Below the pieces are notes generated by a model. That model saw only the letters and a list, made by a program, of their open reading frames with translations, was not told where the DNA came from and did no database searches. A stretch of DNA of 64,000 nucleotides. Origin: Schmidtea nova (taxonomy: Eukaryota). Every line of letters starts with the position of its first letter. The stretch's first letter is position 1. The position numbers were made by a program, and so were the translations under genes. The DNA lies in contig CM097882.1 of assembly GCA_044892505.1 (NCBI GenBank), forward strand, positions 385,268,001-385,332,000, read 5' to 3'. Of the stretch, positions 22,918 to 63,923 are shown piece by piece.

Positions 22918-23013
22918 TTATTATTAATATCAATAATTCCCATATTGGATGGCTATAGATCAAAATTTCTTTAAATAAGTACACAATATTTCGGCACAGC
23001 CTTTATCAAGTGT
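22918..23013 (-). repeat. Family B ~130-bp repeat copy (candidate variant hammerhead core at 22981-23013)
   Basis: Exact reverse complement of acacttgataaaggctgtgccgaaatattgtgt plus the shared gatctatag tail. Confidence 0.8.
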
Positions 23014-23047: not shown

Positions 23048-23095
23048 ACAAAAAAAGCTTGTGATTTTCTTTGTGATACCCAGTGCAAATCCCCA

Positions 23096-23137
23096 ATAGC
23101 AGACTAGTTTCGAGCTTTTGGCTCTCATCAGTGCTAT
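23096..23137 (-). ncRNA. Minimal type I hammerhead ribozyme (identical inverted copy)
   Basis: Exact reverse complement of 23570-23611. Confidence 0.9.
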
Positions 23138-23569
23138 GCAGGAGACGCGAAAATTTCTCTCCGCGCCAGGTAAGTATAAAACAAAGTCGAAAGATTTTGT
23201 TATATACTATACCTGGTACACTGGATAAAACATCACTTGAATATGCAAGGTCCTACAGATAATCTGTAACTTGCAAACATGGCGTATGAATTTCATTTTC
23301 ACCTCTGCGCACTAAAAGTGTTCAACAGAAACTGTTTGCAAGCGCACCCGACTGCCTTAGCTTCATTATTTCAATTTTTTGAAATATCTTTTGAAAAAAA
23401 CATTTGTCGGATGACTTATTTGTTTTAAACAAAAAAAGCTTGTGATTTTCTTTGTGATACCCATATTCAAGTGATGTTTTATCCAGTGTACCAGGTATAG
23501 TATATAACAAAATCTTTCGACTTTGTTTTATACTTACCTGGCGCGGAGAGAAATTTTCGCGTCTCCTGC

Positions 23570-23611
23570 ATAGCACTGATGAGAGCCAAAAGCTCGAAAC
23601 TAGTCTGCTAT
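23570..23611 (+). ncRNA. Minimal type I hammerhead ribozyme
   Basis: ATAGCA-CTGATGA-GAGC caaaa GCTC-GAAA-CTAG-TC-TGCTAT: 6-bp stem I, full core, 4-bp stem II, palindromic A-CUAG-U stem III, GUC cleavage after 23605. Confidence 0.9.
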
Positions 23612-23918
23612 TGGGGATTTGCACTGGGTATCACAAAGAAAATCACAAGCTTTTTTTGTTTAAAACAAATAAGTTATNNNNNNNNNNNNNNNNNNNNNNN
23701 NNNNNNNNNNNNNNNNNNNNNNNNNNNNNNNNNNNNNNNNNNNNNNNNNNNNNNNNNNNNNNNNNNNNNNNNNNNNNNNNNNNNNNNNNNNNNNNNNNNN
23801 NNNNNNNNNNNNNNNNNNNNNNNNNNNNNNNNNNNNNNNNNNNNNNNNNNNNNNNNNNNNNNNNNNNNNNNNNNNNNNNNNNNNNNNNNNNNNNNNNNNN
23901 NNNNTGATCTTTTTTTAA

Positions 23919-30100: not shown

Positions 30101-33100
30101 NNNNNNNNNNNNNNNNNNNNNNNNNNNNNNNNNNNNNNNNNNNNNNNNNNNNNNNNNNNNNNNNNNNNNNNACCAATTTGATTTGGCATGTCTTATTGTT
30201 TCCTAGTAAAGATTTATTGACATTTATGACATTTATTATTATATCATAAATTTTCTAAACCCTTTAAATGCTTTATCTATATTGGTAAGAATATTATGAA
30301 TACATGATAGTTTATTATTTCTTCTCTTGTTCATCTAATTGTATTTATTCTTCAATAGTAACGTCCTAACATTTTAATAATCATATCAAAATTTCGAACT
30401 TTTATTAATTTTTCATATATTAGACATAATTTTAATATAATAAATCAATTAATTCATAAAAGTTTATAAAACGAATCTTCGTAAAATTGGATTCTTTTAT
30501 ACCAATATCCCAGTAATTACGATATATATCAAATAACATTTCTTTAATCAATATTATGTTTGTTTATTTATCTCCCAGTTTTGTTTGCACATTGTCAAAA
30601 ATATTGTCATAAAGTTAGATATTTTCAAGAAATGAAATAAGTCAAAATTTTTTAAATAAGTTTTTATGTGAATTTTAAATGTATCAAACTAATAAAAAAT
30701 TTTAAATATTTCCGAAATATATTTTGATATTTTCCATTTAATATTTTTTTATTTTATTCTGTCAATAATTTAAAAATTTGTTTTTCTCCTATTTAAAACA
30801 AATTTAGCAATCCCCTTTTAAGTGTTTTTTTAATAAAATTATTTTAATTTATTGTTCGAAAAATAAGAAAAAAAGTCAATAGTGAAGAAAATTGACTTTC
30901 ATTAAAATTTTTAAAATTATTTTAATATATTTAGAATATTTTTTTATCTTTTTAAAATATTTTCATTAACTTGAAATATAAATTTTCAGAACTAAAGTTA
31001 AATATTATATTTTTTATTAATTAATCGAAATATTTATCAAATGCGTTTCTTTATCGATAATTCTAATTGGGAAAATATTAGCAATGCTATTCGAATAGCT
31101 ATTGAAGCGGAAAATACGAGCCGATTGTAAATTGATCCCTTCGTACGAGTGTTCGTGTTTAATTTACGTTGCTTGTACTTACAACATATTTTTTTTTATG
31201 AAAAACAAATATTCCGACATGTAATTTGCTAACTAAAATTTTAAATTATTCAATATGGAAATTAGTAAAATCTGATGTTAGCCAGAGATTAGAATGTGTA
31301 AGAAAGCACATTTGTAATTTTTTTCTCCAGTTGCACAGCATTTGACTTGTCTCTTAAAATTGACAATAATTCTGTCATTTGGCCCAATTAAATAAATTAT
31401 TATTGCCTATTATCATTCTAGTAAATGTAATGATAACTAATTTTACTTGACATTTTCCTAGATTCTTTCTAATGCTTTCACGAATGTGCTGTTATGTAAG
31501 ATTTAGAAAAATTAAATCCGGATTTTTATCTCATTAATTTTTTAAAGTTTTTTTTGATCTTTAAACATATCCGATTATTATTTATTTATTTATTAAAAAT
31601 ATTGGAAAATAAATAGATAGTTTATCGCACACAAAAAATAAAATTTTTCTAATATTAAAATATATTATCAGTAAAATCTTAATATTATTCACCATTGATT
31701 GAAAATTTTCAATGTCTTTTCTCATAATTTAATGACAATAGATCAATATTTTATCCAATATTTCATTGATCGATTTTCATTTTCGATTTCTTTTATTTTT
31801 TATGTGCTTTTCTATTTTTAACACCAATTTTTGACATAGCCCTTTTCAAGTGTTAAGTGGCAGACTGGAAAAAACATTTTATTTGTCAATTCTAATTAAT
31901 TCTAATTAGCCAAATAATTATTATTAGTTATAAATTAAACAATAAAAATTTATATGACTTTTTCTTACTTAAAATTATTTTTTTTGTAAAATATTACCCA
32001 AAAAATTAGTTTATCTTAAAAATATATTTTCAAGTATTTTACTATTTTAAACCAAAAAGATTCCATTTAAATAAATAATTAATAGAATTTAAAATTTAAT
32101 TTAATATTATCATGATTGTTGTAAGAAATATATAAATAATATCATAAATTAGAACTTACATGTAGCATAGCTTCTACAAAATATGTAATAATTAATGGAC
32201 TGAAGAAAAAACTTAGATGAATTTTAGTTTGTAAATAACTAAATTTTTAATTGGTTGAAAATATATCCAATCAAATAACTTCTGATTGATTTCTGCATTT
32301 ATTATGATTTAAAATAAAATTATTATTTATTCAATTTTTAATAAATTTTTTATATAAATGTATAAATTTCTTTTGATATATTTCATTTTTCAGTTAAATT
32401 TGTTAATCAATATTTTGCTAGATTATTGAGTTTTTAATTCTAAAATATGACTGAAGTGCAACAGCTACTCAATGATAAATGCATTTAAACAAAAAAACCA
32501 ATATTATAGATATACATAGTACAAAAAACATGGCACTAAAATAATTAAAAACAAACTCCAATTCAAATATATATTCTGCACAATATATTTCGAGAACTTC
32601 ATTCACAACATCAGGTGCTATTCATTCTACCATTCCAATATAAATCAAAAAAATTGATTTTCAAAAAATTAATCATAAATTTTCAAAAAATGTATATTAT
32701 AGTTTTATAAAATAGCCAAAAAATATAAAACCATAAAATTATTTTTTTTAATTTAAATAAACTAATCTTAAAAAATAATATTCTCTTTTTAAAACAAATG
32801 TTTTTTTAAGAATATTTAATAAATATTCCCATATTTATAAACAACAATATAATTGAAAGTGAATCATAAATTAAAAATGCTCTAAAACAGATATAGTATT
32901 GAAAGTTTACTCAATATGACAAATTGAGTTGTTATAAAAAAATTTTTTAAAATATTTAAAGTAAAAATAATTTTTAAAAAAATTAAAAAAAATACTTTTC
33001 AATAAAATCTAAAATTATCAAAATTTCTAAACAAATGTTTCAATGGACCTGAATCCAATACGGAAGGTACATTTCGCTATACTAGACAAACGATTTCAGA

Positions 33101-36100
33101 CCTATTGAAGCAAATTTAAACATGTCTCTGAATTTCAACACTGGTTGTATATTGCTAATGAAATGGGTCGTACGTACTACATTTCGAAACGAAAATTCGT
33201 AAGGTAAGTGAAAATGTTAAATATATCTTACACGTTTAAAGACTGCGTTCCGTATTAAAAATTACTCGCGCTTCCTTATAAAATAATATAGACATGTATT
33301 AATTATTAAATAATTAAATAAGTGTAAAATAACAGAACATAAAAATTCATAGAAACTAAAAATTAAAGTTAAATTTAAATTTAAACTTTCGCTGTCCTCC
33401 AGGGAAGCACGCTTCATAGTTTTTTTTTTGATCACTCTCAATTCATTTATTGTTATATTAACCAAAAAAGTTAATATTTATTATTTTAAAATTACTATTA
33501 TTGGGTAATTATTTAAAAAAGATAATAAATCACAATAATTGAATGGGATGGAAAATATAGAATGCTGTTTGATGAGTTGTGATTTTAGACGAAAGAGGTT
33601 TTCGAAATTAAATTTTGTTAGAAATTTTAAAACTTATTTTGTAAAATTTGGCATTTTGTTTCGTAAATGAATGTTATCACTCTATGTAGTTTTCACAATG
33701 TTTATGGTAATTATTCGTTTTTCTTTTGGTGTTTTTTGATTTGAATTGCTATCTTTTTCCCTTAAGTTAATCGAGTCAATAACAAATTTAATTTATAAAA
33801 AAGGAAAGCTTTCTGGAAAGAAATTGACGAAGACATTCGTAGTAATAGACAGCTAATGTTAGAGATTACCTAAGTTACGTTTTAAAGATGCTGAAGTGAT
33901 AAAAGTTGTATTACAGAAGGATTTCCATTTTATTGGATGTAATATTAAGATTGGTACGCTTAAAAAAAATCTTTTTATCTGTGCGTGTTACGTTTATACC
34001 CATTTTACAGGATATTTATTCTAGAAAAAGTTTATTTAAAGGTTTTCTTTTTCTTTTACTTTTTTAGTTACATATTACATATTTCAGATTCAGAACCATT
34101 TTTTCACCATCATTTTATGATGTTCGTCCGCCTTTTCCTAAATCTACTACTAATAATTATCAGTAGAATAAATCTGATAAATTTTAAATAAAAGATTATT
34201 ACAAATATCTTGAAATTATGGTATTCTTTTGTTGTAAGTAAGGAAAAGTAAGATGCTTTATATTGAAAAAAACACTTTTATTTAATAATAATTAGTAAAT
34301 ACAAAAACTGGCACCGTCATTTGGCGGATTTTCTTTATTACTAGTATTTATATTAATTATAAATATATTGGTTTAAAAATAATATATTCTAAATATAAAA
34401 CAATGTTTCTATTTCTTTATTTCGAAGCCTATTTTTCGAAATGTGATTGGAATATTGAAGTAAATTTAAAAACTTATTAATCAGTTTTCAAAGAAATAAG
34501 TATTTTATTTATGTAAATAATTCTATTTTTATTTTATAATTTATTCATTAATTTACAAAAGAAATTCATTATATATTAATTTGTCTCAAATTCAACGAAA
34601 ATTATTTAATTTAATAGAATAAATTTTGAATTTTAATTAGTTTGAGCATGATGGAGTCTTTTTGAAATTTGAGTTTTCGTTGTTTGCTTTTTCTAATTCT
34701 TATTGTTGAAATTTGATTCTCTCTCCGTGTTGGGAATAGAACGCAGCACATAATTGTCAATTCCCTCCCCACAGCTTAATACTTTGCAATCAATATTCTC
34801 TAGTAATTATACAAACAACTTTAATCTTTTGTGTCAGTTGAGTAAGAGTCTCTCTGAAGAGCTAATTCGTTCTCCAATTTTCTAGAAGTCAATCTAAAGA
34901 GATATAGATTGTATGATAAATAATGATTGTATGGCAAATTGGCCTAATTACAATTACATTATTATCTTAGTGCCTCACAAACTTAAACTATTCGTCGATG
35001 CTGTTATTTCTTTTTCAATAAAGAAAATATGAAATTATTCATCTACAGAAAATCTGAGTTGACTAAATACTATAATTTTATACTATAATTTTATTATTAT
35101 TATTATTAACAATTGTGAAAATTAGAAAATTAGTGTATATACTCGCGTATAAGACGTATAAGACTTTTACAATAAGTTTTATTGTGATATTCAATGTAAT
35201 TTTTATGGCAAATGTGTTTTGAGCTTAGTTGTCTCTCGTAAGTATTTTTTAAGAAACTCGATCTTATCCGAAATCATACACATTGACTTGATGACCAGAC
35301 CAAAAATCTGACCACTGCCATCAAGCGAAATGGAATATCACAATTTTTGTACCTCTCTGATCAAATGCATACATAATACATTTGTAAAAAAATCAACAAA
35401 ATGATAAACCGGCATTTAGAAGTAAATTTTGAAAACAGTAATCGGAAATGTGGGTCAAAAGGTCAGAAATAATTTCTGATCTATAAAAATCTTTTGAGCA
35501 TGACATTTTTCGTGAAAATTATTTCATTGATTGGAATAGAAAGGAGGACCCAGAAACCTCAGAAAAGCATAAGATTATTGAAAAAGAGTATTTAGAAAAA
35601 CGGATTAATTTTTTCTATGAAAAGAACAAAATATATTTCGTTTTTTGAAGATGTATCTTATTTTACTTTAATTCGATCACAAAATTCTAGCTACTAGGTT
35701 CACATAGATAAAGTAGAACAAGTTATATTTGAGGCTTTACTTAAATTCTAAAAAAGATCGATACTTTTACAGTGCCTTCAGATGCCTACTTGAAAGATTT
35801 TGGACACACTTGAAGGTGAAGGTTGATTGATCAAATATATCAAAGAAATTTAAAAAAGCTAAAATATTCGATGAATTATACTTTTACAACTTTTTTAAAC
35901 AAATTAAGGACAAAATTTTCATAATCACTCAAACATGGCACATGAACAAATAAAACAAACGCCGATCCAATTATTTTATAGACAATTAATTTCAAGAAAA
36001 TAATTCTGATCTTCAGATGCTTTCAGTTCAACATTACAATAACTAATGACCAAATTAATAGATTAATTTAAACCCATTCAACAATAATTTTTAAATATGC

Positions 36101-37915
36101 AAACATTGTAAGAAAAAGTGGTAAAGTGAAGTTGTCATTTATAGACTTGTCGACACTGAAAATACGAATGACATTTTTGATAGTTCATTGTCACACATCT
36201 TTCGATATTTCGCTTTGGAAGGTTTTGTTTCATGATTACTCGTGTCGAATTAATTTTGCGAATTTATATCATCTCCAACTTTAGCGTTTCTTTATTTTCT
36301 CATTCTAAATCAATCGTTAAGCAAAATTTAGCTTTTATGTTTGATTAACTTTTATCAAATAATATTTTATTTATATTACGATTAACACCATCCATGTCTT
36401 AGAAATATTCAAACAAAAATATAAAAATTATTTTACAAATTTTATTTGCACATAAAATAGTATTTAAAATTGTCATCACTGCTCAATTTGCATTCGGTTT
36501 TATTAAAACGATTATTAATATAATTTTATTTAAAATTTCGACAAGAAATTATTAAAAATCGGTCACATAAATTTTTAACCACTTAATGTCTTTCTATACA
36601 GTTTTTTTGAATATATAATAATTTTTATCGATGGAATTTTTTTGTTTCAATTATTTTTCTTAAAAATAATTAAAAATATATTTAAAAAAATATTTCACAA
36701 ATATATCCATACTTTATGTTTAAGAAACCAAACATCTTAATTGTTTCTCTGTTAATAGTTTTTTTCATTTACTTCCAAAAAGAAGTTCAAATATAAAAAA
36801 AAACAAATATTAAAACCGTTCTCACTTTTTTGTATTGTTCACAGTGATTAAAATGATTTTTTTCAATATTCAGAATGTTTTTTGGCACTGTACAACTAGA
36901 ATTATCAGTTTGAATCTGTAAGAATTTCTATTATTTTATTAGTCTTTATAAATCAACGCCCGGTAAAATAGTCGCAGTGGATTTCCTGTGGAAATTTGAA
37001 ATAGTTTTTTATTAATAAAAGATAATTATTATTCAAAATTTCTCACTTAGCACACGTAAATCAATTAAATTATTATAAATTAATTTTCTTTGTTTTTACA
37101 TTTTTGATGAAAGTTTTGTTTAATTATAATTTGTCTTTTTATTATTTGAATTTTTAGTTTTATTGTAATGAAACTTCAGACATTTTATTAACCGTTTTTT
37201 CAATCTTTTTTTGCCCAATGTCATTTTTATCAAATAATTCCGATATTTTACTTAAATAGATAATTGTTATTTATTTCATCCAAAAGAAAATAGTTTTAAA
37301 AATTCATTTTAGTGAAAGTATTTTCTCGTTTCTTTTAAATTAAAAAAACGGGTAATTTAATTTTGAAAAATTATATATAATTATAAGTTACATAAGAGAC
37401 TATATACTATATACTATAATGAATAATTTGTCAATAGAGCACGCGCTAGTTAGAGAAATTATTAATTAGTATATTTTATGTATTTTAAGAATATTAGAAA
37501 ATGTTTTTACGAAGTTATTAAATTATTATTTAAATCGTCAAATTATTTTTAGAAATATGATAAATTTATTTATTAAAATTTTTTTATAAATTTATTTTGA
37601 AAATTATATTTTATAAATTATAATACCATAGAAATATTTTATGAACATCTTTATTCCCTCAAATGTATAAAATCCCTAAAAAACATTATTTATCTAAATC
37701 AATATATTTTTTTAAGTAACACGAATTTTCGGCACATTAGTTTTTCAAGAAAATCTCTGAAATGGAAATGAAAAAATCAAAATTTGGAAAGTTTTCTCAA
37801 TTAACTAAAATTTGCTAAATTCATTATTATCTATTCATGAAATTAAAAAAATTAAAATAAAATTACTTAATTCTCAAATTATGAATTATTTATCTAAACA
37901 TTGTTTCCATTCTAG

Positions 37916-38204
37916 TTCCAAGCGATGAGTAGGCATAATGAAGCATGGAAAGAATCATTGAGATATCGTTGGGCTAATTTCGATACAATGTGTGGAATAA
38001 GACGAATGACTTTAAATCGTAATCTTGGAATCGGTGATGAAGGTGCTCTAATATTGGCAGAGTCTTTGAAAGATGACTTGTGGGTTAAAGCAATCGATTT
38101 ACAGGAGTGTAGTTTAACAAGCAATGCTGTGCGTGGTTTTCTTAAAGTTTTAAAATATAACTCAACACTTGTAGTATTGGATCTGAGAAGAAATCCCATG
38201 ATCG
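37916..38204 (+). CDS. CEP78: CEP78 homologue, LRR exon
   Basis: ctag acceptor. Encodes FQAMSRHNEAWKESLRYR...MCGIRRMTLNRNLGIGDEGALILAESLKDDLWVKAIDLQECSLT...NSTLVVLDLRRNPMI, matching the CEP78 signature (RRHEETWAESLRYR...LRRITLN...EDLWLRALDLQQC...LVVLDIRKNPLI). GT donor at 38205, phase 1. Confidence 0.92.
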
Positions 38205-38574
38205 GTTCGATANNNNNNNNNNNNNNNNNNNNNNNNNNNNNNNNNNNNNNNNNNNNNNNNNNNNNNNNNNNNNNNNNNNNNNNNNNNNNNNNNNNNNNNN
38301 NNNNNNNNNNNNNNNNNNNNNNNNNNNNNNNNNNNNNNNNNNNNNNNNNNNNNNNNNNNNNNNNNNNNNNNNNNNNNNNNNNNNNNNNNNNNNNNNNNNN
38401 TTTCAAAATATATTTATGGGAAATATATTTCGATGGTATAACCATCATCTTCAGTCCTAAAATTATCGATTATTTAAACAAATTATGCGGTCAAATATAA
38501 GTAACTACTATACGCATTGTGCATATTTAAAGAATGAAAAATAAAATATTTTTCTTCTTTCCCTCTCTTCTAAC

Positions 38575-38916
38575 TTGTTCAAGAATAAATCTGTTACACC
38601 TTCAGCCCTATGTTCGAATGTAGTTTATCAATTAAATTGTAATGGGTGTAATGCCACATACATTGGAGAGACTGCCCGTCATCTCTGTACTCGCATTCGT
38701 GAACATTCTAGACCTAATGGTGTCAGTAATATTTGTGAGCATGTTAAAAAAATCTGTAAAAATACAATTATCGATGTTAAAGATTTTAAAATTGTGAATA
38801 GAAATTTTTCCAGTTACTGGGAAAGAGTGGTTTGTGAAGCTTTGTATATCAAATCTTTGGATCCTAAGATTAATTTACAAAGTGAGACAACAAATCTATT
38901 GAGTGTATTTAATTAG
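38575..38916 (+). CDS. Penelope-type GIY-YIG endonuclease fragment
   Basis: NVVYQLNCNGCNATYIGETARHLCTRIREH...EHV...EALYIKSLDPKINLQ shows the VVY/YIG motifs, the CxxC..H..H zinc motif and the conserved R, E and N. The RT part is absent. Confidence 0.88.
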   Translation: MFKNKSVTPSALCSNVVYQLNCNGCNATYIGETARHLCTRIREHSRPNGVSNICEHVKKICKNTIIDVKDFKIVNRNFSSYWERVVCEALYIKSLDPKINLQSETTNLLSVFN

Positions 38917-39069: not shown

Positions 39070-39684
39070 TAAATATATTTTGAAATGGCAAATTGGTCTT
39101 TTTAATAATAAATTGCCATAATTTTTCAGATATAATTATAAAAATTAAATAATATAATTTGCTATGTAACAATGTTTGTCTGTCCGGATGTTACGCTTTT
39201 TAGGGGCGCTGATTGGCTGATTTTTCAATCAGAAAACTTGCAAATTCTTACACCTGTGTGTGTGACTATGATTGTTTTGATAAGTCAGTAGGATTCATCC
39301 AAAACAATATTAAGAATTTTTGAATTTAATTTTTGGTTTATATTAATTTTGAAAACATTAGTCATTTTTGACGGGATATTGCTAGTAATAATAATAGTAA
39401 AAATAATAATAATACACAATTAATATATTATATTATTAATAATGATTTTTTATTTATATTTTCGAATTACCAAGTTTTGGTTGATCTTAAGTTACAAATT
39501 TTATTGAATGAATTATTTATTGTCATTTATATCATTTAATTTTTTCATATTTGATCTCACTTTTTTCACTTTCAGAAATACTTAGAAATTTATATAGTGA
39601 ATAAATTTTCGACAGTGCTTTTTTCAAGTATGTACTTCAAAAAACTAAGTTGTAAATTCGTGTGCTATAAATAAGACTATATAC

Positions 39685-40960
39685 CAAAATATTGTTATTA
39701 AAATATATTGTTATTTCTATATATACACTGTGCGCGTTGAAATGCTTAAAGAATTTTGTGAAACTGCGGAAGTCGAATATCAGAAAATACTTGGATACAG
39801 TAAAATGCGCTGGTTAGCTCTTTCGCCAGCTGTCGAAAGAATTTTGAAAATATACGATCCTTTGAAATCCTACTTTCTATCACAGGATAAATGTCCTAGA
39901 ATTTTAGAAGAGTTTTTTGAAAAAGAATCTTCAAAAATTTGGCTAGAGTTTGTACATAATCAAGGAGCTCATTTTCAAAATGCTATAAAATTTATTGAAG
40001 GTGACAAAATTTCGGCAATCGAAGTAGCAAACGAAGTTAATAATTTAAAATTTCAGTGTCAAGAGCTGTTAGAAAATAATTTTCTTCCGTTAACTATCCG
40101 TAATAGTATAAACCAGCTAGAAGAACAAGGTGCAATAAATCGTACAGATATCATGAAGCACGTCAAAATGTTCTATAGTAACTGCATAGATTATTTAGAA
40201 GAGTGGACGGTACATTACAATGACATTGAACATTTTCATTGGATTACATTAAAACAAGAACTTAATTGGAATGATGTGCAAAAATCATTCGATCATATTA
40301 CTCAAAATTTCCCAGATAGTAATATTTCCGAAAATGATCTTTTTAATGAGGTATCATTATTAAAAAAAATATATTGATAAGGAAAAGATTCAATCTTGGG
40401 CAACAGAAAAAATCACAATAGAGAACAAATGGTTAGAAATATTTCATCATTTTGAAACAAACTATATTTCATACAATAATGCACTAAAGATTGTGGAATA
40501 CGCGCTGTCCTTACCAGGATCTAATGCTGCGACTGAACGCGTTATTTCTATGGTAAATAAAGTGGGGACATTAGAAAAATCACAATTAAGTGTTGAGACT
40601 TTGAAAGCCATTTTATGTGTGAAAAATAATTTAACAAATTCTTGTGAAAAATTTCATGACCTTTTAAACAACGACAACAATCTACTAAAAAAATTCACTC
40701 AAATGAGAAATATGCCAAAGAATAAAATATTGCTATATATAATTTTTTTTATAATTTTCATTTATTATAAGTATTTGTAAATTGTGCTTATGTTGAATTT
40801 AAATAAAATATATTACAATACTATTTTGCGTTCTATGAAATTTTTTATTGCTCCATATAGACCAAATTGTTAATTAATTACCACCTCCCCCCAACCCTCC
40901 CCTTCCTCGTCACCGGTTAATGGTTTCCCGCTTTACCAATGTTAAAATCTGGTCACCTTA
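39685..40960 (+). mobile_element. 5'-truncated hAT transposon with frameshifted transposase
   Basis: KMRWLAL...VERIL and the dimerisation domain LSLPGSNAATERVISMVN...LKAILCVK; frameshift in an A-run near 40370. Right TIR tctggtcacctta at 40948-40960; no left TIR found. Confidence 0.85.
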
Positions 40961-41680: not shown

Positions 41681-43748
41681 ATATAAAAAAAGATATGTAT
41701 AAAGTAAACCTTGAAATCTATAACAGATGAAAAATAATAAAAATTCATTTACAATCAATATTAAGTAACAAATATTTTTAAAATTGATCAACTCCATTGT
41801 AAAATACTCATTAAAATTGAATTTGTTAGTTTGTTGTTCCAAGTTTGGTATCAATAAATTCCATATATTGTTAGGAGTTATTCAATATTAAGTAAAATCA
41901 GATTATCAATCAGTAAATGTAATTGTCTACTAAATTTAATAAAAATCAATATTTTTTAAAATATTTTGAACAAACTAAAATATTTTTCTTTATTTATGAA
42001 TAATGTAAATCATGGAATTGTATATTTTGTTTAAATTAATTAAAACAATCTTACAGAAAATACATAAAGAAATCCATAATAAAAGGTTTTTGATTATTAA
42101 ATATTAAGAAATACAATTACGACGAACAATATTGTAAACTTTAAGATGAACGATAATTATAGGTGACAAAATAAATATAAGCAATTTACATTTCAAATAG
42201 ATACTTAAATAAACATGTAAAAGATTTTATTAATAAAATGCGCCACTTATATAACCGTTTGCTAAAAGATTTGTCGCACAAATTTAAAATTAAGTTTTGT
42301 AAAGAATATATTAAAAACAAATTTCTATTCAACACAAATTTCCAGCACTTTCTTTTAAACACTTGAAAAAGACAGAATCGTATGTAAATGAAATTGAAAA
42401 TAGATCTAAGGGGAAGAAAATTAGAGGTTTTAATGATAGTGTCATTTCTTTTCTATATTAGATCGTTGAAAGTACACTTTTACATATAATTATAATTTTT
42501 TTGATTTAATAAAGTCAACTCTGATACAAAGACACAGTAAATTATGTGTTGGTTACATTTTGTAATGCTAATTTTATAGTTTTAATATTTTTTGACTTTT
42601 TCAATACTGATGTTTTCTTTTTTTGTAGCTTCTGGTTTTAAAAATTCAAAAACAATCGAAATTATTTGATGTGTTATACAACTGCTAAATTGTATAACCT
42701 TAGTTGTAGGTTAAACAAATTAAAATAAATATGAAAACTCACAATAAGTAAATATTATTTAATATAATATTTAATACTAGTTCGCTACATGCTGTCTTAT
42801 GGCGGCTATATACTTTTTTATGTTATATACTAGATTGCAAAAAGGAAAAAATAAATACAAAATTTTAATTGTAATTATCAAAATATTAAATCACTAAAAG
42901 GATTGCTACACTTATCAAAATTATTAATTTAAAAACCTGAAGAAAAATAACAAAAATATCATACTCTAAATATTTTCTTTAAAACTACATTTTTTGTGTA
43001 CTTATATCCATAAGAATAAAAAATATAAATAAAAATATTATAATATATTTTTGTTTTAATTTACTGCGTTATGTGTGGGTAGACAGACAAATTTATATTG
43101 TTATAATATAGTAAAATTATTAAAAATCTATTAAACTTCCTAATATTAAACATTATTAAAAAAAGTACTAACTTTTCGAAATATAGTCTTGGATAAATAA
43201 TAATTATACAATATACTAAAATTTAAAAAATATTTGTTTTATTTATTAATTTTAAAGAAATAATAAATAATAATGATTTATTAGAATTATTTTCACATTC
43301 AATAAGAATTGCGATCTACTTCAACAAATCTCCAGAGAATTGATGGCTACCTGAATAAATATACCATTTATTTATATTATGTGATACTATAGTATTAATA
43401 ATAAATAAAAAATTTAACATTTTTCTAAAGTTTTTCAAATCCATTTTAGTATTTTAGGCTCTTTTAAATTTATGGATACAGTTTTTTTCTATAATATAAT
43501 CTTTTGGGTTTTTTTTTCAATCATTTTGTTAAACTATTGAACAAAACATTTTTTATTAGGTACACGACATTTTGACTCGGTATGTATTGATAAGGACTGT
43601 ATCGAAATATCATGTACCTAACTACAAAAAAAATAAATCTTGATCTATATTCTTACAAAAATTAATAAAAAAATAACTAAATTTTTCCATAATTAAAAAA
43701 TAATCAATTATTTTAGAACGACCGAAAATATTAATCAAATGTTATTTA

Positions 43749-43985
43749 TCATAATTATCTTTTTTCACCTTTGATCTTTTTTTATTATTATTATCAATAA
43801 TTCTCATAATGACTATAGATCAAATTTTTTTTTTATAAACAATAACACAATATTTCGGCACAGCCTTTATCAAGTATGTATTTGATAAAGGCTTGTGCCG
43901 ATAAAGGCTGTGCCGAAATATTGTGTTATTGTTTATAAAAAAAAAATTTGATCTATAGTCATTATGAGAATTATTGATAATAATA
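43749..43985. repeat. Family B inverted pair
   Basis: Two opposed copies meet at tcaagtatgtatttgataaag, with a small internal duplication of ataaaggctgtgccg. Confidence 0.85.
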
Positions 43986-45472
43986 AATGTTATTTGTTAA
44001 TTAGAAATGAAATATTTTTGATTAATAAAAACAAAAACTTTATTAACATATCCTTTGTTTGGATTTTATCTAGCTAAAAAATTCGAAATATGATGATTCT
44101 CCTAAGATTTCATAGTTTCCTTTAGGGTAATGGTCCTGAATTGGACCAGTTAGAGTAAAACTACTGTTCTGTCGTAATCTGGTTGAAACAAATTCGGAAA
44201 AAAAGTAATGAACTTACAGTCAACTGATTATCAAATAGACTATAATTGTAATAAAAGTTCTATTTAAGAGACATTTATCTTAATTTTGACCATTATTCTC
44301 TTTTATTAGACAGATTTACTTTTCGTTTTTTAAATAAGATTGTTATTAAACAATTGTTTCTTAAAATAATTAAGCTAGCAAACACTAATTTAGGAAATAT
44401 CTATTTATACCTATAGATAGAAGCATAGATGAATGTTCATTCAGTTCATCAGTCTACACAACAACAGAGCCCGTGAATGGTCGAGGTTGTGTGCAAATAA
44501 TACACATTCATTCTTCTGTCCGATGCTAATTAACATATTTTGATAAAAATGCCAACTGATAAAGTATGCAAATTATAAATAAAATTTAATTAATTCCATG
44601 GTCAGTTTTAAAACAACACATAATTAGGGGATTTTTCTATACTAAAAGTAGAGAAGATTCTGTTAATTATGAAATATTTTATTCAAATGCAATTTCAAGA
44701 TGTTTGAAACATTGATATCTATTAATCATATATTAAAAATAGAAAAATTAAAAAAATATTTGTTGCTATTCGATAAAAATTTAAAAAGTTTTATATTTTT
44801 GTATTGAATCTAGAATTATATATTTCTATTGGTATTCGGACCATTTCTCTCTAGACTAATTCTCCCGGATAAAATGAAGTTACTAAATTATATTTATTTT
44901 TTCATAACAATAGACAATAAATTAATCGAAATGTAACTAGAGTTTTCTTGAATTTTTCTGTAAATATTTCGACTAAGATAATAGAAACATTTTTATGCAA
45001 ACATGTTATAAAATAAACATTTATATTTATTGGATCTTAATTTTTATTCATATTCTGAAGTAACACTACATACTTTTTATTAGAAAAAAGGATGATGATA
45101 TAATGCGTGTAAATTTTTCATTAACTGAGAGAATTTTGTCATAAGGGATATTGTTCTGAAGGAGAAAATAATTTAATGATAGTTATCATGGACTAATCTC
45201 TAGAATCAGCGTATATAACCAAATAATTCAAAGAAAACAAATTGAGGTTTTCAGAAGAGTAAAGTCTATAATACATTAACGCAATTTAAATAAGTAATAA
45301 TCTCTGTATACCTAATATAAACTAATAGACACTAGTTTAAATAAATAATAAAGCTATCTATGGGAATATATGAAGGTTTCTTAATTTATTTTAATTCTCA
45401 TATATTTTAATTTTATAAATATTTCCGATATTTGTTTCAAAATAATATTTTAACATTATTTTCATTTAATAG

Positions 45473-45595: not shown

Positions 45596-47280
45596 GTAGT
45601 TTTGATTTTTCAATTCTTTTAAATCATTTTTCAAATTATAAGATCTGTTTATAGTAAATAATAAAATTAATAAATTAATTTATTATAATTAAAATTTTAA
45701 AAAAAGTTTTTATTATATTATATTTAAAAATATAATTGAATAAAAATCTTATTAGATTTTTTGTAATTTTGTAAGATTGAGATATTTCTATATTTATTTT
45801 TAAAAAAATTATTCTTAAAATTATTATTTACCAATTTTTAAAGTGATAAATAATTGTTTATAATTAATATATTACGCTGAATAATTTTCCTTAAATATTT
45901 TGAAAGAATACTACATAAAATATCAAATGATTTTTTATATCATAATTTTACAATTAATATCATGCAAAAATGTTTACAAAAAAAATTTGTCAAAAAAAAT
46001 AAGCCGAAACTCAATTGTAAACAAATTGTGCCTTGAACAGAAATTAGTAGGTAATAATTTACTCTAATTAGTTTCTGTTTGTATTAAAAACAATTTTATC
46101 ATATATTTTGTCTTATCTTTGCATAGCTTTCTAAAACTCGATTTTTAAATGTATTCTTTAATGCCTTTACCTTAAGTGCGATTTACTTAACAACTATCTT
46201 TTAAAACTATAATATAATTATTAAAATTTATATATATCGTATTTCTAACATCTCAAAAATAAATTCCACATCTCCCGTGCTTAATGTATTAATATTTAAG
46301 GCTATAATTTAATTTTTCATTAATCAAAAATAAGGATTTCTTGGTAATATCTCAACAAGTTTTTAAAAATAACCACAAAAAAAAAGAAATTTTACACTTG
46401 ATAAAATCTTTTCTGAAAATCTTTGGTAATTCCTTAATCTTTATCGATCTATTTACATCCAATAAATTAAAATAATAAATCCAATAACTTCAAAATATTT
46501 TATTGATGAATTAAAATATAATTTTTAATTATTTTAATTTTTTATTATTTTTTTATTTAAAAATTGAACTTGAATTGTTTTCCTATTTAAGATAATATAT
46601 CAAAAAAAATTAAAATTTTTACTTTTTCTTGTAATATTTATCTGATGAATTTCAAGTATACTTTGTGGCTCGTGATTGAATCTGCTAATAAGAAAATCTA
46701 ATAAAACTTTCAGTTGACTTGATCATTACTTAGTTTCACAGAAATCGCCCGCTGAATGGGAAGAATGGAAATTTATCATCACTAGTTGGTTGATTGTGCT
46801 GGATAAATTTAACAAGAAAATCGCCAGAGGCAACAAGTTTCACTTAATATTCAAATATTAACTAGACTTTCTCATTATCTTTTTCAAACAGTTTAATAAT
46901 ATTTTCCAGTTTATTTTTATTATTATTTCCCTACGAAAGAAATGATCGTAGATCAATGAGTTCTGATTCTCCTGTGAATAGATTTTTCACGCATCATCGA
47001 AGTTTTTGGACGAAAATATTTTATTGAAATTGAAAATCAATCAACCGAAATTTATTTAAAGTGATTTAATTATTTTTCATATTTCCTTAACGATTTTTTA
47101 GCATATGATTTCTCATTTAGTTCAGACATATTCTTCGTAATAATTGTGAAGAAATAATTAATAAATAAAATTAAAAGTAAATAAATAAATAAAATAAAAA
47201 TAAATAAATAAATAAAAAGTTTGCTAAAATTAAAATAATAGTTATTGATATAGTATTTTCATTTTTTTACATAAAAGCAT

Positions 47281-47500
47281 AATTATCTTTTTGTTTCACC
47301 TTTGATCTCTTTTATTTTATATAAATAATTTCCATAATGGTATGACTATAGATCAATTTTTTTAAAAGTACACAATATTTCGGTACAGCCTTTATCAAGT
47401 GTGAAATATACACTTGATAAAGACTGTTCCAAAATATTGTGTACTTGTTTAAAAAGAATTTTAATCTATAGTCATACCATTATGGAAATTATTGATATAA
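47281..47500. repeat. Family B inverted pair (more diverged)
   Basis: ...tcaagtgt gaaatat acacttgataaagac... with substitutions in the right-hand copy. Confidence 0.8.
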
Positions 47501-52022: not shown

Positions 52023-52349
52023 CTGGATATCGCATGTTTTGAAGTGTGTTTTGGTATAACTATGTTATTTTTATGTTATTAATTTTTTTCCATTTATTGA
52101 ATTTTTTGTTGTTATGTTTTCTTTTCACTTTTTAAAAATATTTATTTTAGGTAATTAATTTGAAAAAATATTATTCTTAAATAATTTATTATAAAGAAAA
52201 TATGTTGATAATATTATGATAATCATTATTCATTAATTTCTAGTTATTATTTGTTATCTTAATTACTAGTCTGATATTCAATCGAAATATATAGCGTTTT
52301 TTTAAATATACTTGGCTTTTTAGTTATATATATATATATATATATATAT

Positions 52350-52972
52350 TATCAATAATTCCCATAATGATGACTATAGATCAAAATTTTTTTTATAAAC
52401 AATAACACAATATTTCGGCACAGCCTTTATCAAGTGTGTATTTAAGAATTTAAAAAGAAATTGCTAGGACAAATAAAATATTAACGATCGAATTTCGGAA
52501 ATATTAAACAATTAAAAAATTTGAAGCCTAAGGAAATAGAAAAAGAGAATCCTTATAATCAAAGAGTTATTCAAATAGTTAAACGAAGAGTTAATCAAAG
52601 AGTTAATCAAAGAGTTAATCAAAGAGTTAATAGAAGGGTTAATCCAAGAGTTAACCAAACTCCAGTTCTGCTGAAAAACTAAACATTCTTGATCGCCCGA
52701 GAATTATTTTTCGTACGTGAGTAGTATTCTTGTCTTTTTAAATACAGTTTTATTGTTAGAAATTTGTTATTTTATTTTGTTTATTTCACACGCATTATAA
52801 GCAACAAATACCATACACCCCAACTGTCCCCACAATAAGTTTTGGGAGACTTGATAAAAAAGTGTCGAAATATTGTGTTATTGTTTATAAAAATAATTTT
52901 GATCTATAATCATCATTATGGGAATTATTGATAATAATAAAAAAGATCAAAGGTGAAAAAAAGATAATTATG

Positions 52973-53038
<66 letters not shown>

Positions 53039-53302
53039 CATAATTATCTTTTTTCACCTTTGATCTTTTTTTATTATTATTATCAATAATTCTTATAATG
53101 ACTATAGATCAAATTTTTTTTATTATTATTATCAATAATTCTTATAATGACTATAGATCAAATTTTTTTTTATAAACAATAACACAATATTTCGGCACAG
53201 CCTTTATCAAGTGTGTATACACACTTGATAAAGGCTGTGCCGAAATATTGTGTTATTGTTTATAAAAAAAAATTTGATCTATAGTCATTATGAGAATTAT
53301 TG

Positions 53303-53310
<8 letters not shown>
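52350..53310. repeat. Cluster of at least 4 family B copies alternating in orientation around (TA)n
   Basis: Cores at 52405-52437(-), ~52856(+, mutated), 53182-53214(-) and 53221-53253(+); (TA)n at ~52975-53035 and ~53305-53380. Confidence 0.88.
52559..52657 (+). repeat. 12-bp tandem repeat (aagagttaatca), ~7 imperfect units
   Basis: Directly visible; translates as (RVNQ)n in one stop-free frame, 52485-52682. Confidence 0.85.
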
Positions 53311-53385
<75 letters not shown>

Positions 53386-54776: not shown

Positions 54777-54863
54777 ACACTTGATAAAGGCTGTGCCGAA
54801 ATATTGTGTTATTGTTTATAAAAAAAATTTTGATCTATAGTCATTATGAGAATTATTGATAAT

Positions 54864-55045: not shown

Positions 55046-57254
55046 ATATATATATATAATATTTTGTTATTAATAAATTTTGGATTTGAATTATTTACGG
55101 ACTTTTGAATAGTAGTTCTCTAAAGATCAGTAGCACTAATAGTCATCTTAAAATAATAATTTTACCGTAAAAACATAGTTTTTAAAATTATTTTTTTTTC
55201 ACTCTTCATTTTTATTCAAACTGAAATTGCAATATGCGTTCATAATGCTATGAAATATTTATTCAAACTTCTATAACATATTTTAGATATAATTACGTTT
55301 TCTCTTTAATCCGAAATTAATGAATAGATAAGAATTTATATTGAAATAAAAAAATAACACTAGATTTGACATATCAATATTTTTTTAATTAGCCCACTTT
55401 CCGTGATCGGATCGATCTGAAATTTTGATAGCAAAATTTGCGTGGCACAATCAATTAATCAATCAAACGCGAAATTAATACAGAGAAAGTAAAACATTTA
55501 TTTTCTATCCCATGTTCTTAATTCTTTCTCTAAATTATTTCCGTTGAGTGTTAGACTTTAACGTGAGCAAAATCATGTTAGAAATTCAACATATTCTATA
55601 AAAATGCTACATAGAATAATAGAAATATGATTAATGAGTAGATGCGTCATGTTACTGCGATGCAAGTTTCTTTCAAAGTAATAGGTATTGGATAATGATA
55701 ATTTCTGCGGCCAAATATGGAAAATAAAATCGTTAAAATTAAGTCCCGTTACTTTTTTTCCTTTCATCCGAAATATTATTTACTCTCCCATTGCGATTTC
55801 GATAAAATGGTCAGCGTTTTAAAATATAAAAAATAATTTTATCTCTTGTAAGTTTATTTATTTAGATTTTTTATGTACTGGAAATGATTTTCCAATTAGA
55901 TTCTTTTCAAAAATTATCTCTGTTTACGGATATTACAACGTAAGGAGAGGAGAAATATTAATTTATGAAAAACAGTAAAGCACAGTGAATTATTCCTCGG
56001 AAATTATTATTAAGAGTCTAATTCGTGATTAACTCACAAAGGTGTTAATAATAATTAATTTAAATCAGATTTATATTTTAAAAACATCCGTTTTATATTT
56101 TTAATTATATATCATTTATACATTATTATATGGAAAATCACCAGTGATCAAATATTATTTCATTAATTTTCATTTTTTCAGACAATAGATCAATTTTTCC
56201 GTTTTTAAATTCAATAAGAATTTCAAGTTCTATTCAAAAAATTCTGAAAAAATGAGAAAAAAACGAAATCATAAAAATGTGCATAAATAGAATTCTGTCA
56301 TCTTATAAAAATGAAGGGAAAATAAATTGTAGATTGCCTTCAGCAAATTATTAATAATTTCATTTTTTCTCTAATTCGTATGTTTTCATTTTGATTAACT
56401 TTATTTTAGTTTAGATTTTTATTAAAAATATTTAAAAATTCTCAAATATATTTGAATACTGTCAAACTTATTATCAATTATAATTAATTGGTTGTAATTG
56501 CGCTTGGATATTTTTATTGGTATTCGCCTAAACGGGATAAAATACCATATTTTTAGGGTGACATTAATTATGAAAAATATTTACCTTTTATGTCTCATGT
56601 AATAATTTTTTATTTATTAAATATAATATAGCTCGATATAATATAGGTCATCTTCATTTGTTTCAGACTATATATCAATCTTTTTATTTATATGACACAT
56701 TTTTTTTGTAAATCTTTTTCTAACGGCTTTTTCTTGAAAAATGCTTTTGCTGAAAATTCTTGTCAAATAAAAAAAATTATTTTATATATATATATATATA
56801 AATTATTTTTTCTTTCAAGAAATAATTTGAAAAATTTTAGATGCATCGGTTGCTCGAACATTGTTGACCACAAACAATTTGTGAAATTTCTAAAATATTA
56901 TTGCGAGATTTTATTGAGTGCAATTTTTGCTGCTAATATTGTCGATTATAAAATAGTTTTAGAAATTCAATAATATCTATATAATAATTGTAAGACTACA
57001 GATCAAAGATTTTTTTGGTTGTTAGATTCACGATATTTTAGCACAGCCTTAATCAAGTGTGTATTAACTCAAAAATGATATGATAATTTGATTTGTAATC
57101 TTAAAAAAATTAATATGAAAATTATTGAATTAAAAAATAAAGATCAAAAGTAAAAGATAATTATGATAGTTTTAGAAATATAAAAATGTGAACTAAGTTA
57201 TCTGTACTAACGAATGACAGTTTGAATGACAGAATCGGGAAGTTTTATATATAT

Positions 57255-60020: not shown

Positions 60021-60371
60021 ATTCGTAATTTTTCATAAATTTTTAAAGCCTTATTTGTATTTGTATCGGTATCAGTTGGATTCCGTTTTTGATTTAGGTC
60101 TTCCAGCAAACTCATTAATGCTTTTTTGCATAGTTTCCATTTCTTACATGTGAAGCTGTACTCATACTCGTACACTTTAATAATATTTAATTCTTGATAA
60201 TAATTAAAAAATCCAATATATAATAAAAGTATATAAAAATCATAAGAACAAATGGCAAAATTATATTCAATTATAATTATAAATTATTTGAACTTCTCAC
60301 TAATACTTAAATATTAACCATAAAATTCAACTGTTTTCAATAATTATTTAGTAATAATATAATATTAATAT

Positions 60372-60780
60372 CAATAATTCCCATAATGGTAAGACTATAG
60401 ATCAAAATTTCTTTAAATAAGTACTTATTTTAAATGTATACTTATAGAAAGAAATTTTGATCTATAGTCTTACCATTATGGGATTTATTGATATTAATAT
60501 TAAAAAAAGATCAAAGGTGAAACAAAAAGATAATTATAATAATAATATAATGGCTATTAAATTTTAAAAAAAAACAAGTAAAAAAAATTTTTTTTTGATT
60601 TCATTTTTTTCAGACAACAGATCAAAATAATTTTTCTCTGTTATTCAACACAAATTTTCGGCACTGGCTTTTTAAGTGTTAAATAAATAACACTTGGAAA
60701 GGTTAGTGCCAAAATTTTGTGTAGAATAATAGAAAATAATAATTATTATTATTGTTTGATCTATTGTCTGAGAAAAAATA
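60372..60780. repeat. Family B palindrome lacking the core (60372-60545) plus a diverged subfamily inverted pair (~60600-60780)
   Basis: gactatagatc...gatctatagtc palindrome, then cacaaattttcggcactggctttttaagtgtt opposed to aacacttggaaaggttagtgccaaaattttgtgt. Confidence 0.7.
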
Positions 60781-61165: not shown

Positions 61166-63923
61166 TTAGGTTGAACCAAAAATAATTGTCGTTTTATTCG
61201 TTTAAACTTTGATGCTCATTTTCTTATTAATGTTAATTTATTAATTTATTAATCCTCTTATTATTTATGTTAATTTTTTTGTTTTCGTTGTTTTTGTTAA
61301 ATATTTTCTGTTTATATTAAAGATGGAAAAAGTGCAAATTTGATCGATTTTATTGTATGAGTTCCAATAAGGCCATAATGAATAGGAAGCTGGTCGCGAT
61401 ATCATCCAAGCATTTGGCCAGAAGTCGATCAATGAACGTACAGCTCGGTATTGGTTCCAAATACAGTCGGATCCGCTTTATTTGGACACATCGGGACTTG
61501 GGCATTTTTGTCCCAATTAAGCGGCTGTCCCAATTAAACGAATTTCACATTTTTTTAAATTCATATACATATTTGGTTTGGGCAACTAAGGCCATTAACC
61601 AGTAATACACACATAAAATTAAACAATGCATATTTCTTTCATTAATTTTATTTTAAAAACTCTTGGAAATTATAAATTATGTACATATAATATAAATTAT
61701 CATATAAATTACAAATAATATAAATTTAAAAAAAAAATAATAATAAATTCCTAATTAAAATAATAAATGTATACATACAAATTAATTCAATGTAAAAATG
61801 AGTCAAGTGTAGTCTGTCTTTTGTTTTTGTAACATTTCGCTTCTACAAATTCAGCATTATCATCGTAACATGGTAAATTGTTATCTATTGTTGAAAATTT
61901 TTCAGTTATTAATAGTAAGTTGCAACATATTCTCTTTTTCTTCATTGCTTAAAATTTCGGGAATCTCTAAGGGTTTAAAGCCGCAATTAATAAAACAGTT
62001 ATGTATTGAGGTGGTTTTTATAGCTCGCCAACTGTCAGCGACAAACTGTATTGCTTGTAAAAGGGAAATTTCTGAACTAATCTCTCTGATTGTTGTAGAA
62101 CTTATTAATAAATTTTCATCAATGGATTATAATATGTAATTAACCAATTTTCCACGATCCAGAGTCTTAAAATGTTTTATTACCCCCATGTCCATTGGTT
62201 GCACTAATGATGTGGTATTAGGAGGAAGAAATTTCAGCTGTATATTTTTTAGATTGTCTAAATGAGGGTGTTCCGCACAATTGTCAACTAGCAGCAAAGT
62301 CTTTCTTTGTTTAAGTTCTAACTTTTTGATCCAACTCGTAAGCCAATTTCGAAAAGTTTCAGAAGTCATCCACGCATTTTTGTTTGCGTGGTACTCCACT
62401 GGTAGACACTTCATTCTTAACCCCTTAAAACATCGAGGTCTAGCATTTTTTCCTGTGATCAGTAGCTTTCGTTAGTCAGTACCTGACATATTTGTACAGC
62501 CTAACACAGTAATGCGGTCCATCGTGTCGTAAGACACGCGATATGGTAGATTTTGGTACACCAGTTATCTCATCGAGCTGACGATAACTTGTTTTAAGAG
62601 GCTGGCTTTTTATTTTATCTAGCAAAGCAATTTTAAGTGTCAAATCATTGGCATTTTGGCAAGGGTCAAATATCTGAGAAATAAAATTGACAAAAAATAA
62701 GTTTAACTGAATAAATACGTAACAATTGAGACAGTAGGCTCAACTCTCACAGCTTTAATGATTGGTGCGGCTTGGCGCCGATCATTAAAGCTGACTACGT
62801 AAAAATTAAGTGACACCTTATTAAAAACAGCACATATGAATGAAAAACAACGCATCATGTCAAATTCTTTGTACATATTTTTTCTTGAGAATATGTGTAA
62901 AGTAATATGTACTGTGATCTTAAATTTATTGTCCCAATTAAGTGGAATGTTGTCCCAATTAAACATATAAATTTACTGTTGGTTCCTTGGTTTGGTTTCT
63001 GTTCTTTGAGATTTGGCCCAAATAAGCGGCTGTCCCAATTAAGCGGAATCGACTGTATTTCGTAGTGGAAATGAAAGCCGTGAAGGTGCTGAAAGTCGCG
63101 GACGTCTTTCTGTAATTGTCGACGATCGATTGAGGGCAATTATTGAAACAGACCCAAGCAAAACAACTCGAAAACTTGCAGAGGAACTGAACATTGGTCA
63201 TTGAACATTTGTTTGACATTTGCACCAAAAATCAAAAAAGCTCGACAAATTGAAAATCAAAAGTTCCGCCCTTACAAAGTCTACTCCTGTCTTATTTTGC
63301 TCACAAAACCGAGTTTATTTGTCGATCGCATAGTGACATGTGATTAAAATAGATGAAGGTCCAAAAAATTTCTTAAAACAAAATCTCCATCAGTGTTTGG
63401 TGGTCAGCAAATGAAATCATCTACTACAACTTCTTGAATCCTGACGAAACTATAACATCAGACAAGTTTTGTAATATAATCAACAAAATGCACCAAGAAA
63501 TTCAGCGTTTACGTCCATCATTGCTCAATCGTAAAGGACCAATTCCTCTCCATAGCAACGTTTGACCACATGTTGCAAAAGTGAATCTGCAGAAATTGAA
63601 CAAACGGCGCTACGAGACTCTATCTCATCCAGCTTTATCACCAGACGCCTCGTCATTCAACTACTACTTTTACAAGCATCTCGACAACTTCCTTCAAAAG
63701 AAAGTTTTAAACAATCAAACAGAAGTTAAAATAGCCTTCGAAGACTTCATTGATTTCAGAACTCAAGAATTCTATGTTAAAGGAATAATTAAACATGTTT
63801 TTGTTGGCAAACGTTTGTAGATTCGAGTGGTTTTATTTTGATTAATAGACTTTATTCTAACCTAAGATATAAAGATTTAAAATTTATGGTTGAAAATGGC
63901 AATTATTTTTTGTGCAAGCCTAA
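61166..63923 (+). mobile_element. Defective Hsmar1/cecropia-like mariner interrupted by a Tigger element
   Basis: TIRs ttaggttgaaccaaaaataattg / caattattttttgtgcaagcctaa with TA flanks. MEKVQI*SILLYEFQ...NERTARYWFQ continues after the insert as FRSGNES...LRAIIETDP...; later YETLSHPALSPDASSFNYYFYKHLDNFL. Confidence 0.88.
61464..63055 (-). mobile_element. Tigger/pogo element nested in the mariner
   Basis: TIRs cagtcggatccgctt / aagcggaatcgactg with TA TSDs (61462-63 and 63056-57). DDE_1 fragment YHANKNAWMT...LLLVDNCAEHP...FLPPNTTSLVQPMDMGVIK. Confidence 0.9.

Follow-up and report, generated by a model that had tools for sequence, protein, structure and literature searches.

What is the repeat that lies back to back with itself at 53031–53305 of a 64,000-nt stretch of the Schmidtea nova genome (contig CM097882.1, positions 385,268,001 to 385,332,000; hereafter the window), and does the hammerhead-like motif that it carries cut RNA in the animal? 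With a probability of roughly 0.7, we read it as the pseudo-long terminal repeat (pLTR) of a Penelope-like element (PLE) that is young and very abundant, bearing a minimal type I hammerhead motif with a U3–A8 core pair; in vivo, this motif likely cleaves some, though not most, of the element's RNAs after U17. This reading is built on the observed anatomy of the element, covariation of the motif and the positions at which genomic copies end, from which we infer the mechanism proposed below.

The motif is a 33-mer present as an exact string at five places in the window (22981, 52405 and 53182 on the minus strand; 53221 and 54777 on the plus strand), the same five that the initial annotation had named; 100 shuffles of the window gave no match. 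Versions with one to three mismatches occur at 43845 and 47370 (minus) and 47410 (plus), and more diverged ones near 13387, 31821, 43584, 43882–43925, 52847, 57028, 60647 and 60690. The diverged copies listed in that annotation were found at or near their places, except that the one near 37720 is only partial (37695–37736). Genome-wide, the exact 33-mer is counted 33,134 times (16,487 plus 16,647 on the two strands) in the 1.25-Gb assembly, and a reversed-pattern control gives 0.

Positions along the repeat are counted from U3 of the hammerhead core as 0, which places U17 at +24 and the first base past the predicted cut at +25. The pair has the following parts.

53031..53217, minus strand: left (long) arm, a pLTR copy that starts at −8 and runs to the 3′ end of the element, the ~37-nt tail included.
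53066–53170, minus strand: 49-bp tandem duplication inside the left arm.
53182..53214, minus strand: minimal hammerhead of the left arm; U3 at 53210, predicted cut between 53186 and 53185.
53218..53305, plus strand: right (short) arm, a tail-less pLTR copy holding the element's start codon at 53290.
53221..53253, plus strand: minimal hammerhead of the right arm; stem I 53221–53224/53250–53253, U3 53225, A8 53230, extra A 53232, stem II 53233–53241, AUAU palindrome 53245–53248, predicted cut between 53249 and 53250.
53216..53219: inversion joint, where the arms overlap by 2 nt; each ends at −8, the most frequent position in the upstream wall described below.
52975..53035: (TA)n array that borders the left arm on its outer side, the presumed target.
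53306..53383: (TA)n array that borders the right arm on its outer side, likewise the presumed target.

In hammerheads, cleavage follows position H17 of the established numbering. By that numbering, the 33-mer is a minimal type I hammerhead with a U3–A8 pair, an extra base between 9 and 10.1, a G10.1–C11.1 pair and an AUAU palindrome; stem I has 4 bp, and stem II has 3 bp with a 3-nt loop. Its minimum-energy fold consists of stems I and II (−5.9 kcal/mol), in agreement with the type I mapping first proposed for it. The repeat carries a minimal type I hammerhead motif, for which cleavage is predicted.

Within the genome, copies decay neutrally once inserted, so that comparing the conservation of core and flanks among them is uninformative; we compared families instead. 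Covariation was scanned in 76 metagenome loci of related elements, from the best 80 of 374 matches, under a strict descriptor that required stems I and II and G10.1–C11.1 but set no condition on positions 3 and 8 or on the stem III spacer. All 37 strict plus-strand matches, many of them near-copies, pair Watson–Crick at 3–8 (C–G in 23, U–A in 12, A–U and G–C in 1 each). The strict scan of 662 kb of the planarian's own genome returned 29 U–A, 11 C–G and 3 other cores, against 2 control matches. An alignment of 15 families—those of 22 with the extra A and a 2-nt spacer—shows every catalytic position invariant (15/15), position 3–8 always paired (C–G 8, U–A 5, A–U 1, G–C 1) and a palindrome centre that switches among CG (9), UA (5) and GC (1); older copies in the window carry an AAUU-type palindrome. 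Stem II spans 3–7 bp in relatives, and the motif lies mostly 130–500 nt past the stop of the open reading frame (ORF). The closest relative with DNA available (L105, 42% amino acid identity) keeps U3–A8 on different stems, and a quick tree, several rows of which are short, puts U–A in two separate lineages and A–U and G–C in one family each. The compensatory nature of U3–A8 and the palindromic stem III, both put forward in the initial annotation, are borne out by this covariation. Judged from these sequences, position 3–8 takes all four Watson–Crick pairs in nature. Single examples of the two rare cores, A3–U8 at L169 2594 and G3–C8 at L174 1197, lie 200–320 nt past a PLE ORF with stems and palindrome intact; within incomplete coverage of the literature, we found no report of natural A3–U8 or G3–C8 cores.

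The repeat belongs to a 2.77-kb element in which direct repeats, the pLTRs, lie 2,767 bp apart and flank an 869-codon frame combining reverse transcriptase (RT) and GIY-YIG endonuclease. The two pLTRs differ by 1 mismatch in 251 bp, and the hammerhead motif is present in both (loci L032, L031, L033 and L034). The start codon falls at +66, within the pLTR. RVT_1 matches the element protein above the cut-off (E 1.4e-7), and a YIDD motif is present; the C-terminal GIY-YIG-like region has two cysteines between GIY and YIG and a CCHH set (C773, C776, H806, H817). Pfam GIY-YIG gave no match to this protein (P0001) itself; the motif is visible by eye, close homologues carry PF01541, and the endonuclease region matches a GIY-YIG ORF of the window at E 1e-13. 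The exact pLTR/ORF junction is counted 988 times, partly in tandem arrays with a period of 2,764–2,770, and copy depth climbs toward the element's 3′ end, as in a retroelement. Together with pLTRs, partial tandems, 5′ inversions and a 30–40-bp tail at one end, these features identify the element, at the level of sequence, as an endonuclease-positive PLE. The suspected Penelope link therefore holds, and the search for a Penelope ORF ending in the repeat yielded a full RT plus GIY-YIG element that does so.

That anatomy bears directly on whether a non-autonomous DNA transposon, with the repeat as its terminal inverted repeat, could account for the copies, or whether the resemblance to a hammerhead is coincidental. 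Many copies do sit in inverted pairs, the Rfam search returned no hammerhead match at the 53182..53253 motif, and the fold z-score is not significant. Yet the repeats around the RT and GIY-YIG frame are direct, depth rises to the 3′ end as in a retroelement, and the motif both recurs past the stop codon of related elements and covaries, which leaves this explanation with a very small probability. A DNA transposon or miniature inverted-repeat transposable element was rejected on the direct, rather than inverted, orientation of the repeats enclosing an RT frame. Rfam microRNA matches at the motif fall below gathering scores and reflect the perfect inverted repeat.

Placement among named clades is mixed. 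The element has the DKT motif, CxCx5C linker and length below 3 kb of the Hydra clade, but it retains the CCHH that should be absent there and has no RWK; the CX2-5CxxC linker of Neptune/Nematis is absent, the linker being of CxCx5C type in the element and its closest homologues. Because neither motif definition fits, we leave the element unplaced. Proteins P0001–P0014 form a PLE group with DKT, a CxCx4-5C linker and intact CCHH that fits no clade motif set in the available part of Craig 2021 (PMC8557442). A metagenome search with the single element protein alone gave no match. An old fragment akin to the element's endonuclease end (66% identity) lies in the window at 33557–33730 on the minus strand.

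With the element defined, its copies could be used to map where reverse transcription ended. Nested exact counts, made for one run-length variant, fall from 12,592 (+31) to 11,438 (+24), 10,977 (+17), 9,443 (0) and 3,819 (−14): 60% of core-reaching copies are lost over the next 14 bases upstream. The same wall appears in an unbiased sample of 37 copies, 20 of which have their ends in the interval from −12 to +3. Among 46 inverted pairs (one a duplicate, with loci partly picked for holding the 33-mer), 30 extend furthest to a point between −12 and 0, 11 reach −88 or beyond and 5 reach only +26 to +34; no pair has its furthest end at −87 to −13 or +1 to +25, and 39 of the 46 combine one tailed and one tail-less arm. 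A targeted search for joints at the wall returned 10,067 strand matches, and 20 events end at −12 to −4.

Full-length-class copies behave differently. Among 30 loci with the pLTR/ORF junction, 26 were informative: 1 starts at the upstream wall and 23 extend at least 22 bases further upstream. The wall therefore behaves like the end of some templates, not a stall at every pass. A simple start-to-end linear RNA template, which predicts full-length copies starting at the wall, was rejected on the same 1/26.

The upstream wall is likely a transcription start near −10. A TATA-like hexamer begins at −39 in the element and in 4 other families of 22, and 7 of the 22 families have one within −46 to −32, as compared with 0–4 in other 15-nt windows. 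The wall could instead mark a splice acceptor or a processing site, or it could reflect stalling at an RNA dimer held together by the hammerhead, its two RNAs being copied from both sides of the break. An AG ends at −11, the intron of Drosophila virilis Penelope ends at the 5′ end of helix I, and a single fold-back poorly explains the pairs, 11 of 39, in which the short arm reaches further upstream. Against these alternatives, full-length copies pass the second hammerhead without stopping, and the hexamer at −39 fits a start near −10. The junctions showed neither a spliced or trans-spliced leader nor a common foreign exon ahead of −10; what is joined there is the opposite arm. We consider a non-start origin of the wall unlikely, though a serious contender.

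A second, rarer class of ends coincides with the predicted cut. A search for inverted joints at about +18 to +31 returned 802 strand matches (control, 5). The first 100 of these resolved into 73 events, 69 with family sequence on both sides, whose furthest ends fall at +27 in 1, +26 in 21, +25 in 28, +24 in 7 and +18 to +23 in 12. Position +25, which was set by hammerhead numbering before counting, exceeds +24 (p 5e-4) and a flat spread over +18 to +25 (p 3e-14, with deeper ends under-sampled by the search pattern). All 28 joints at +25 are blunt or contain inserted bases, and none has microhomology of 2 nt or more; in two events, both arms meet precisely at +25. As a control, a window shifted 16 bases upstream gave 404 matches, of which 30 events were examined and 28 verified; of the 17 joints in its peaks at +8 and −3, 16 show 3-base microhomology. 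Outer flanks of 17 checked cut-site events differ or are microsatellite. In contigs from public runs, inverted joints lie at −11 to −4, with a further one at +25, which shows only that such joints exist outside the assembly; the contigs of all four runs belong to a single study, and the source sample may be among them. The copies ending at +25 likely record cleavage after U17 in vivo, as far as genomic junctions can tell.

The +25 ends could also arise without cutting. A true hammerhead descendant might be kept as a structural or protein-binding element, with RT pausing where stem I meets the folded core. Consistent with this, the stems are very short, most templates appear uncut, many second arms (21) end at +28, the foot of stem I, and published PLE hammerheads show low or protein-dependent activity (for protein help, the available text of PMC11167929). 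A pause, however, predicts +29 before stem I or +24 before a dimeric stem III, not +25; chance extension favours +24, where the next base is A, yet +25 exceeds it 28 to 7; and all catalytic positions are invariant in 15 families. We regard a pause without cutting as rather improbable and retain cleavage of a minority of RNAs as the preferred explanation.

Several observations weigh against that explanation. Folding alone is not significant for the 33-mer (z = −1.2), the RNA prefers another hairpin in longer context (z −0.1), and stems I and II have only 4 and 3 bp; modelling gives a double hammerhead only −6.4 kcal/mol, short of the total for two monomers (−5.9 each). On covariation, stem I/II pairing in the 15-family alignment was imposed by the descriptor and is no independent evidence, and under a looser descriptor 4 of 45 matches lack a Watson–Crick 3–8 pair while the reversed control gives 17 matches. 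The TATA signal is weak, at 7/22 in a 15-nt window with related families included, and the 11 of 39 pairs whose tail-less arm reaches further upstream suggest that simple fold-back of one cDNA may not suffice. Cut-site joints are few, at ~8% of the upstream-wall frequency (802 vs. 10,067), and 21 of the 69 events end at +26, not +25; the counts come from the first 100 of 802 matches under a pattern that under-samples deeper ends, and the drop from +31 to +24 in the nested counts is confounded by a point variant at +30. In the Poseidon element PAc of Anolis carolinensis, the available text of Frangieh et al. 2024 (PMC11167929) reports that cleavage was unnecessary for insertion in vitro and that no RNA-seq reads ended at the cut.

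These results are compatible with the following mechanism. Transcription would start ~8–12 nt upstream of the core, placing the hammerhead in the 5′ leader, 66 nt ahead of the start codon. The element protein would nick (TAA)n or (TA)n DNA, and reverse transcription would be primed at two internal sites ~90 and 128 nt downstream of the core, giving the tail. On uncut RNA, cDNA would run off the 5′ end and fold back or join a second cDNA, producing back-to-back pairs such as 53031–53305; on cut RNA, it would run off exactly at the first base past U17. Long and more-than-unit copies would derive from templates that continue upstream, either a circle or RNA read through from tandem copies. For cleavage, the motif probably depends on a dimer or on assistance from protein, and the majority of solo copies are probably inert passengers. 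A transcript across the 53031–53305 pair folds as one long perfect hairpin (−134 kcal/mol), so the back-to-back pair cannot be the active dimer; an active dimer would need two direct repeats of the full element, or two RNAs.

Target choice departs from what was first supposed. In a 1.06-Mb genome sample, of which the family makes up ~1.3%, 26 of 37 young copies adjoin (TAA/TTA)n and only 5 of 37 adjoin (TA)n; the preference for (TA)n suggested by the initial annotation gives way to one for (TAA/TTA)n. Where target-site duplication was looked at, most copy ends sit in microsatellites. At L035 and many other loci, copies are terminated by (TAA)n tracts of up to ~2.9 kb, which suggests reiterative synthesis or expansion at the target.

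A bolder synthesis would treat the genome as a nucleotide-resolution record of the element's RNA ends, both transcription start and hammerhead cut, and as the first in vivo evidence for cleavage by a minimal Penelope hammerhead, here one with a U3–A8 core and no more than 4 + 3 bp of stem. Cleavage would remove the capped leader at a point 41 nt ahead of the start codon, and what had been a message would become a unit-length, circularisable template, from which the more-than-unit and multimer copies would arise. We offer this tentatively and hold it to be somewhat less probable than not. The available text of PMC7761336 describes both in vivo cutting by minimal PLE hammerheads and the reason for their retention as open; within incomplete literature coverage, we found no published report of copy ends at a hammerhead cut site. 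Tens of thousands of young copies turn insertion junctions into a read-out of RNA ends with single-base precision at the predicted cut. What looks new is this map of copy ends, the ribozyme variant itself being already known. The map gives exact and cheap predictions for RNA end mapping, and the junction test can be transferred to any Penelope family and to other genomes.

Further copies of the family and its relatives in the window are as follows.

22981..23013, minus strand: exact 33-mer in a copy of an older subfamily.
31821..31853, minus strand: older related copy.
43746..43986: second inverted pair, long arm minus, short arm plus; the joint carries an internal duplication.
47278..47497: older inverted pair of the same family.
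52405..52437, minus strand: exact 33-mer in a solo pLTR copy (arm ~52345–52443).
52847..52981, plus strand: decayed copy with tail, stem II damaged.
54777..54809, plus strand: exact 33-mer in a solo pLTR copy, followed by (TA)n.
56994..57065, minus strand: diverged copy.
60360..60545: older inverted pair without the hammerhead core; its arms start from a short palindrome just past the predicted cut.
60647..60722: inverted pair of an older related family, with A at position 7 and an AAUU-type palindrome.

The window has a GC content of ~23%. Between two outward-facing pLTR copies, at 52442–52848, lie ~400 bp with a 12-bp tandem repeat and no match to the element body. A second family with a canonical C3–G8 type I hammerhead forms an inverted pair at 23080–23149 (minus) and 23558–23627 (plus), with a weak Rfam HH9 match below the cut-off; it also occurs as a 381-bp tandem array (L084 7658–9944) and resembles a non-LTR retrozyme. 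The 3′ end of a different Penelope-like family, with a GIY-YIG-like ORF, is found at 38545–38916 (plus), followed by a C3–G8 minimal hammerhead at 39032. Elsewhere, loci L109, L110, L115, L130, L132 and L169 hold different PLE families side by side, with U–A, C–G and A–U cores in one contig set; at L169, a 6-nt tandem repeat past the hammerhead has a telomere-like look. Frames at 8093–9130 (minus), 17641–18573 (minus), 39649–40780 (plus) and 62127–62471 (minus) resemble transposase remnants, which we take to be mariner-like, Mutator-like, hAT-like and pogo-like. A CEP78-like host-gene exon occupies 37916–38209 (plus), at ~57–64% to CEP78 of ribbon worms, molluscs, flatworms and lancelets, which places the host among invertebrates.

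Comparison with known systems, made against the available portions of the cited papers, separates what is shared from what is particular to this element. Arkhipova 2013 (PMC3846280) describes TATA and initiator sequences in pLTRs and palindromes at inverted junctions. Non-LTR retrozymes (bioRxiv 10.64898/2026.07.22.740005) share type I hammerheads derived from PLE pLTRs, but they form short head-to-tail tandem units, whereas the copies here, solo or inverted pLTRs that stem from an autonomous element, are dispersed. With the Hydra-clade C-terminal endonuclease-positive PLEs of Craig et al. 2021 (PMC8557442), the element shares a length below 3 kb, DKT, the CxCx5C linker and microsatellite targets; unlike them, it keeps CCHH and YIDD and is without RWK, and the Hydra-clade hammerheads tabulated there are all C3–G8.

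The U3–A8 variant is not new, being in print in two of these sources. Perreault et al. 2011 (PMC3088659) report natural U3–A8 hammerheads, known to be active in vitro, with the same compensatory pair; in the portion available, they are not presented as minimal motifs belonging to the repeats of retroelements. Cervera and de la Pena 2014 (PMC4209133) describe U3–A8 covariation in Schistosoma Cercyon elements, with ~1,300 heterogeneous matches, extra-base hammerheads, opposite-strand pairs and low dimer activity. The S. mansoni Cercyon motif is likewise type I, with U3–A8, an extra base between 9 and 10.1, G10.1–C11.1, a palindromic 15.2–16.2 and a short helix I; it sits in pLTRs ~3 kb apart with many solo copies and opposite-strand pairs, and one listed S. 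mansoni motif has a first core strand identical to that of the 33-mer. Helix II differs, with 3 bp and a 3-nt loop here and typically (not by requirement) 7–8 bp in S. mansoni. More than 33,000 identical copies here contrast with the ~1,300 heterogeneous matches there, and copy ends that map to the cut site are not described in the available Cercyon account.

The closest mechanistic parallel is PAc (PMC11167929), in which internal priming at two sites defines the tail, uncut RNA is the main template, and the hammerhead cleaves in vitro with protein help and is rescued by a 3–8 double change. Both elements have a hammerhead near the start codon, a 30–40-nt tail and AT-rich targets, and internal priming at two sites and a mainly uncut template are likely here too. 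PAc has C3–G8 and a cut inside the ORF, whereas the predicted cut here lies 41 nt before the start codon; and where no reads ended at the cut in PAc, genomic copies of the planarian element do end there.
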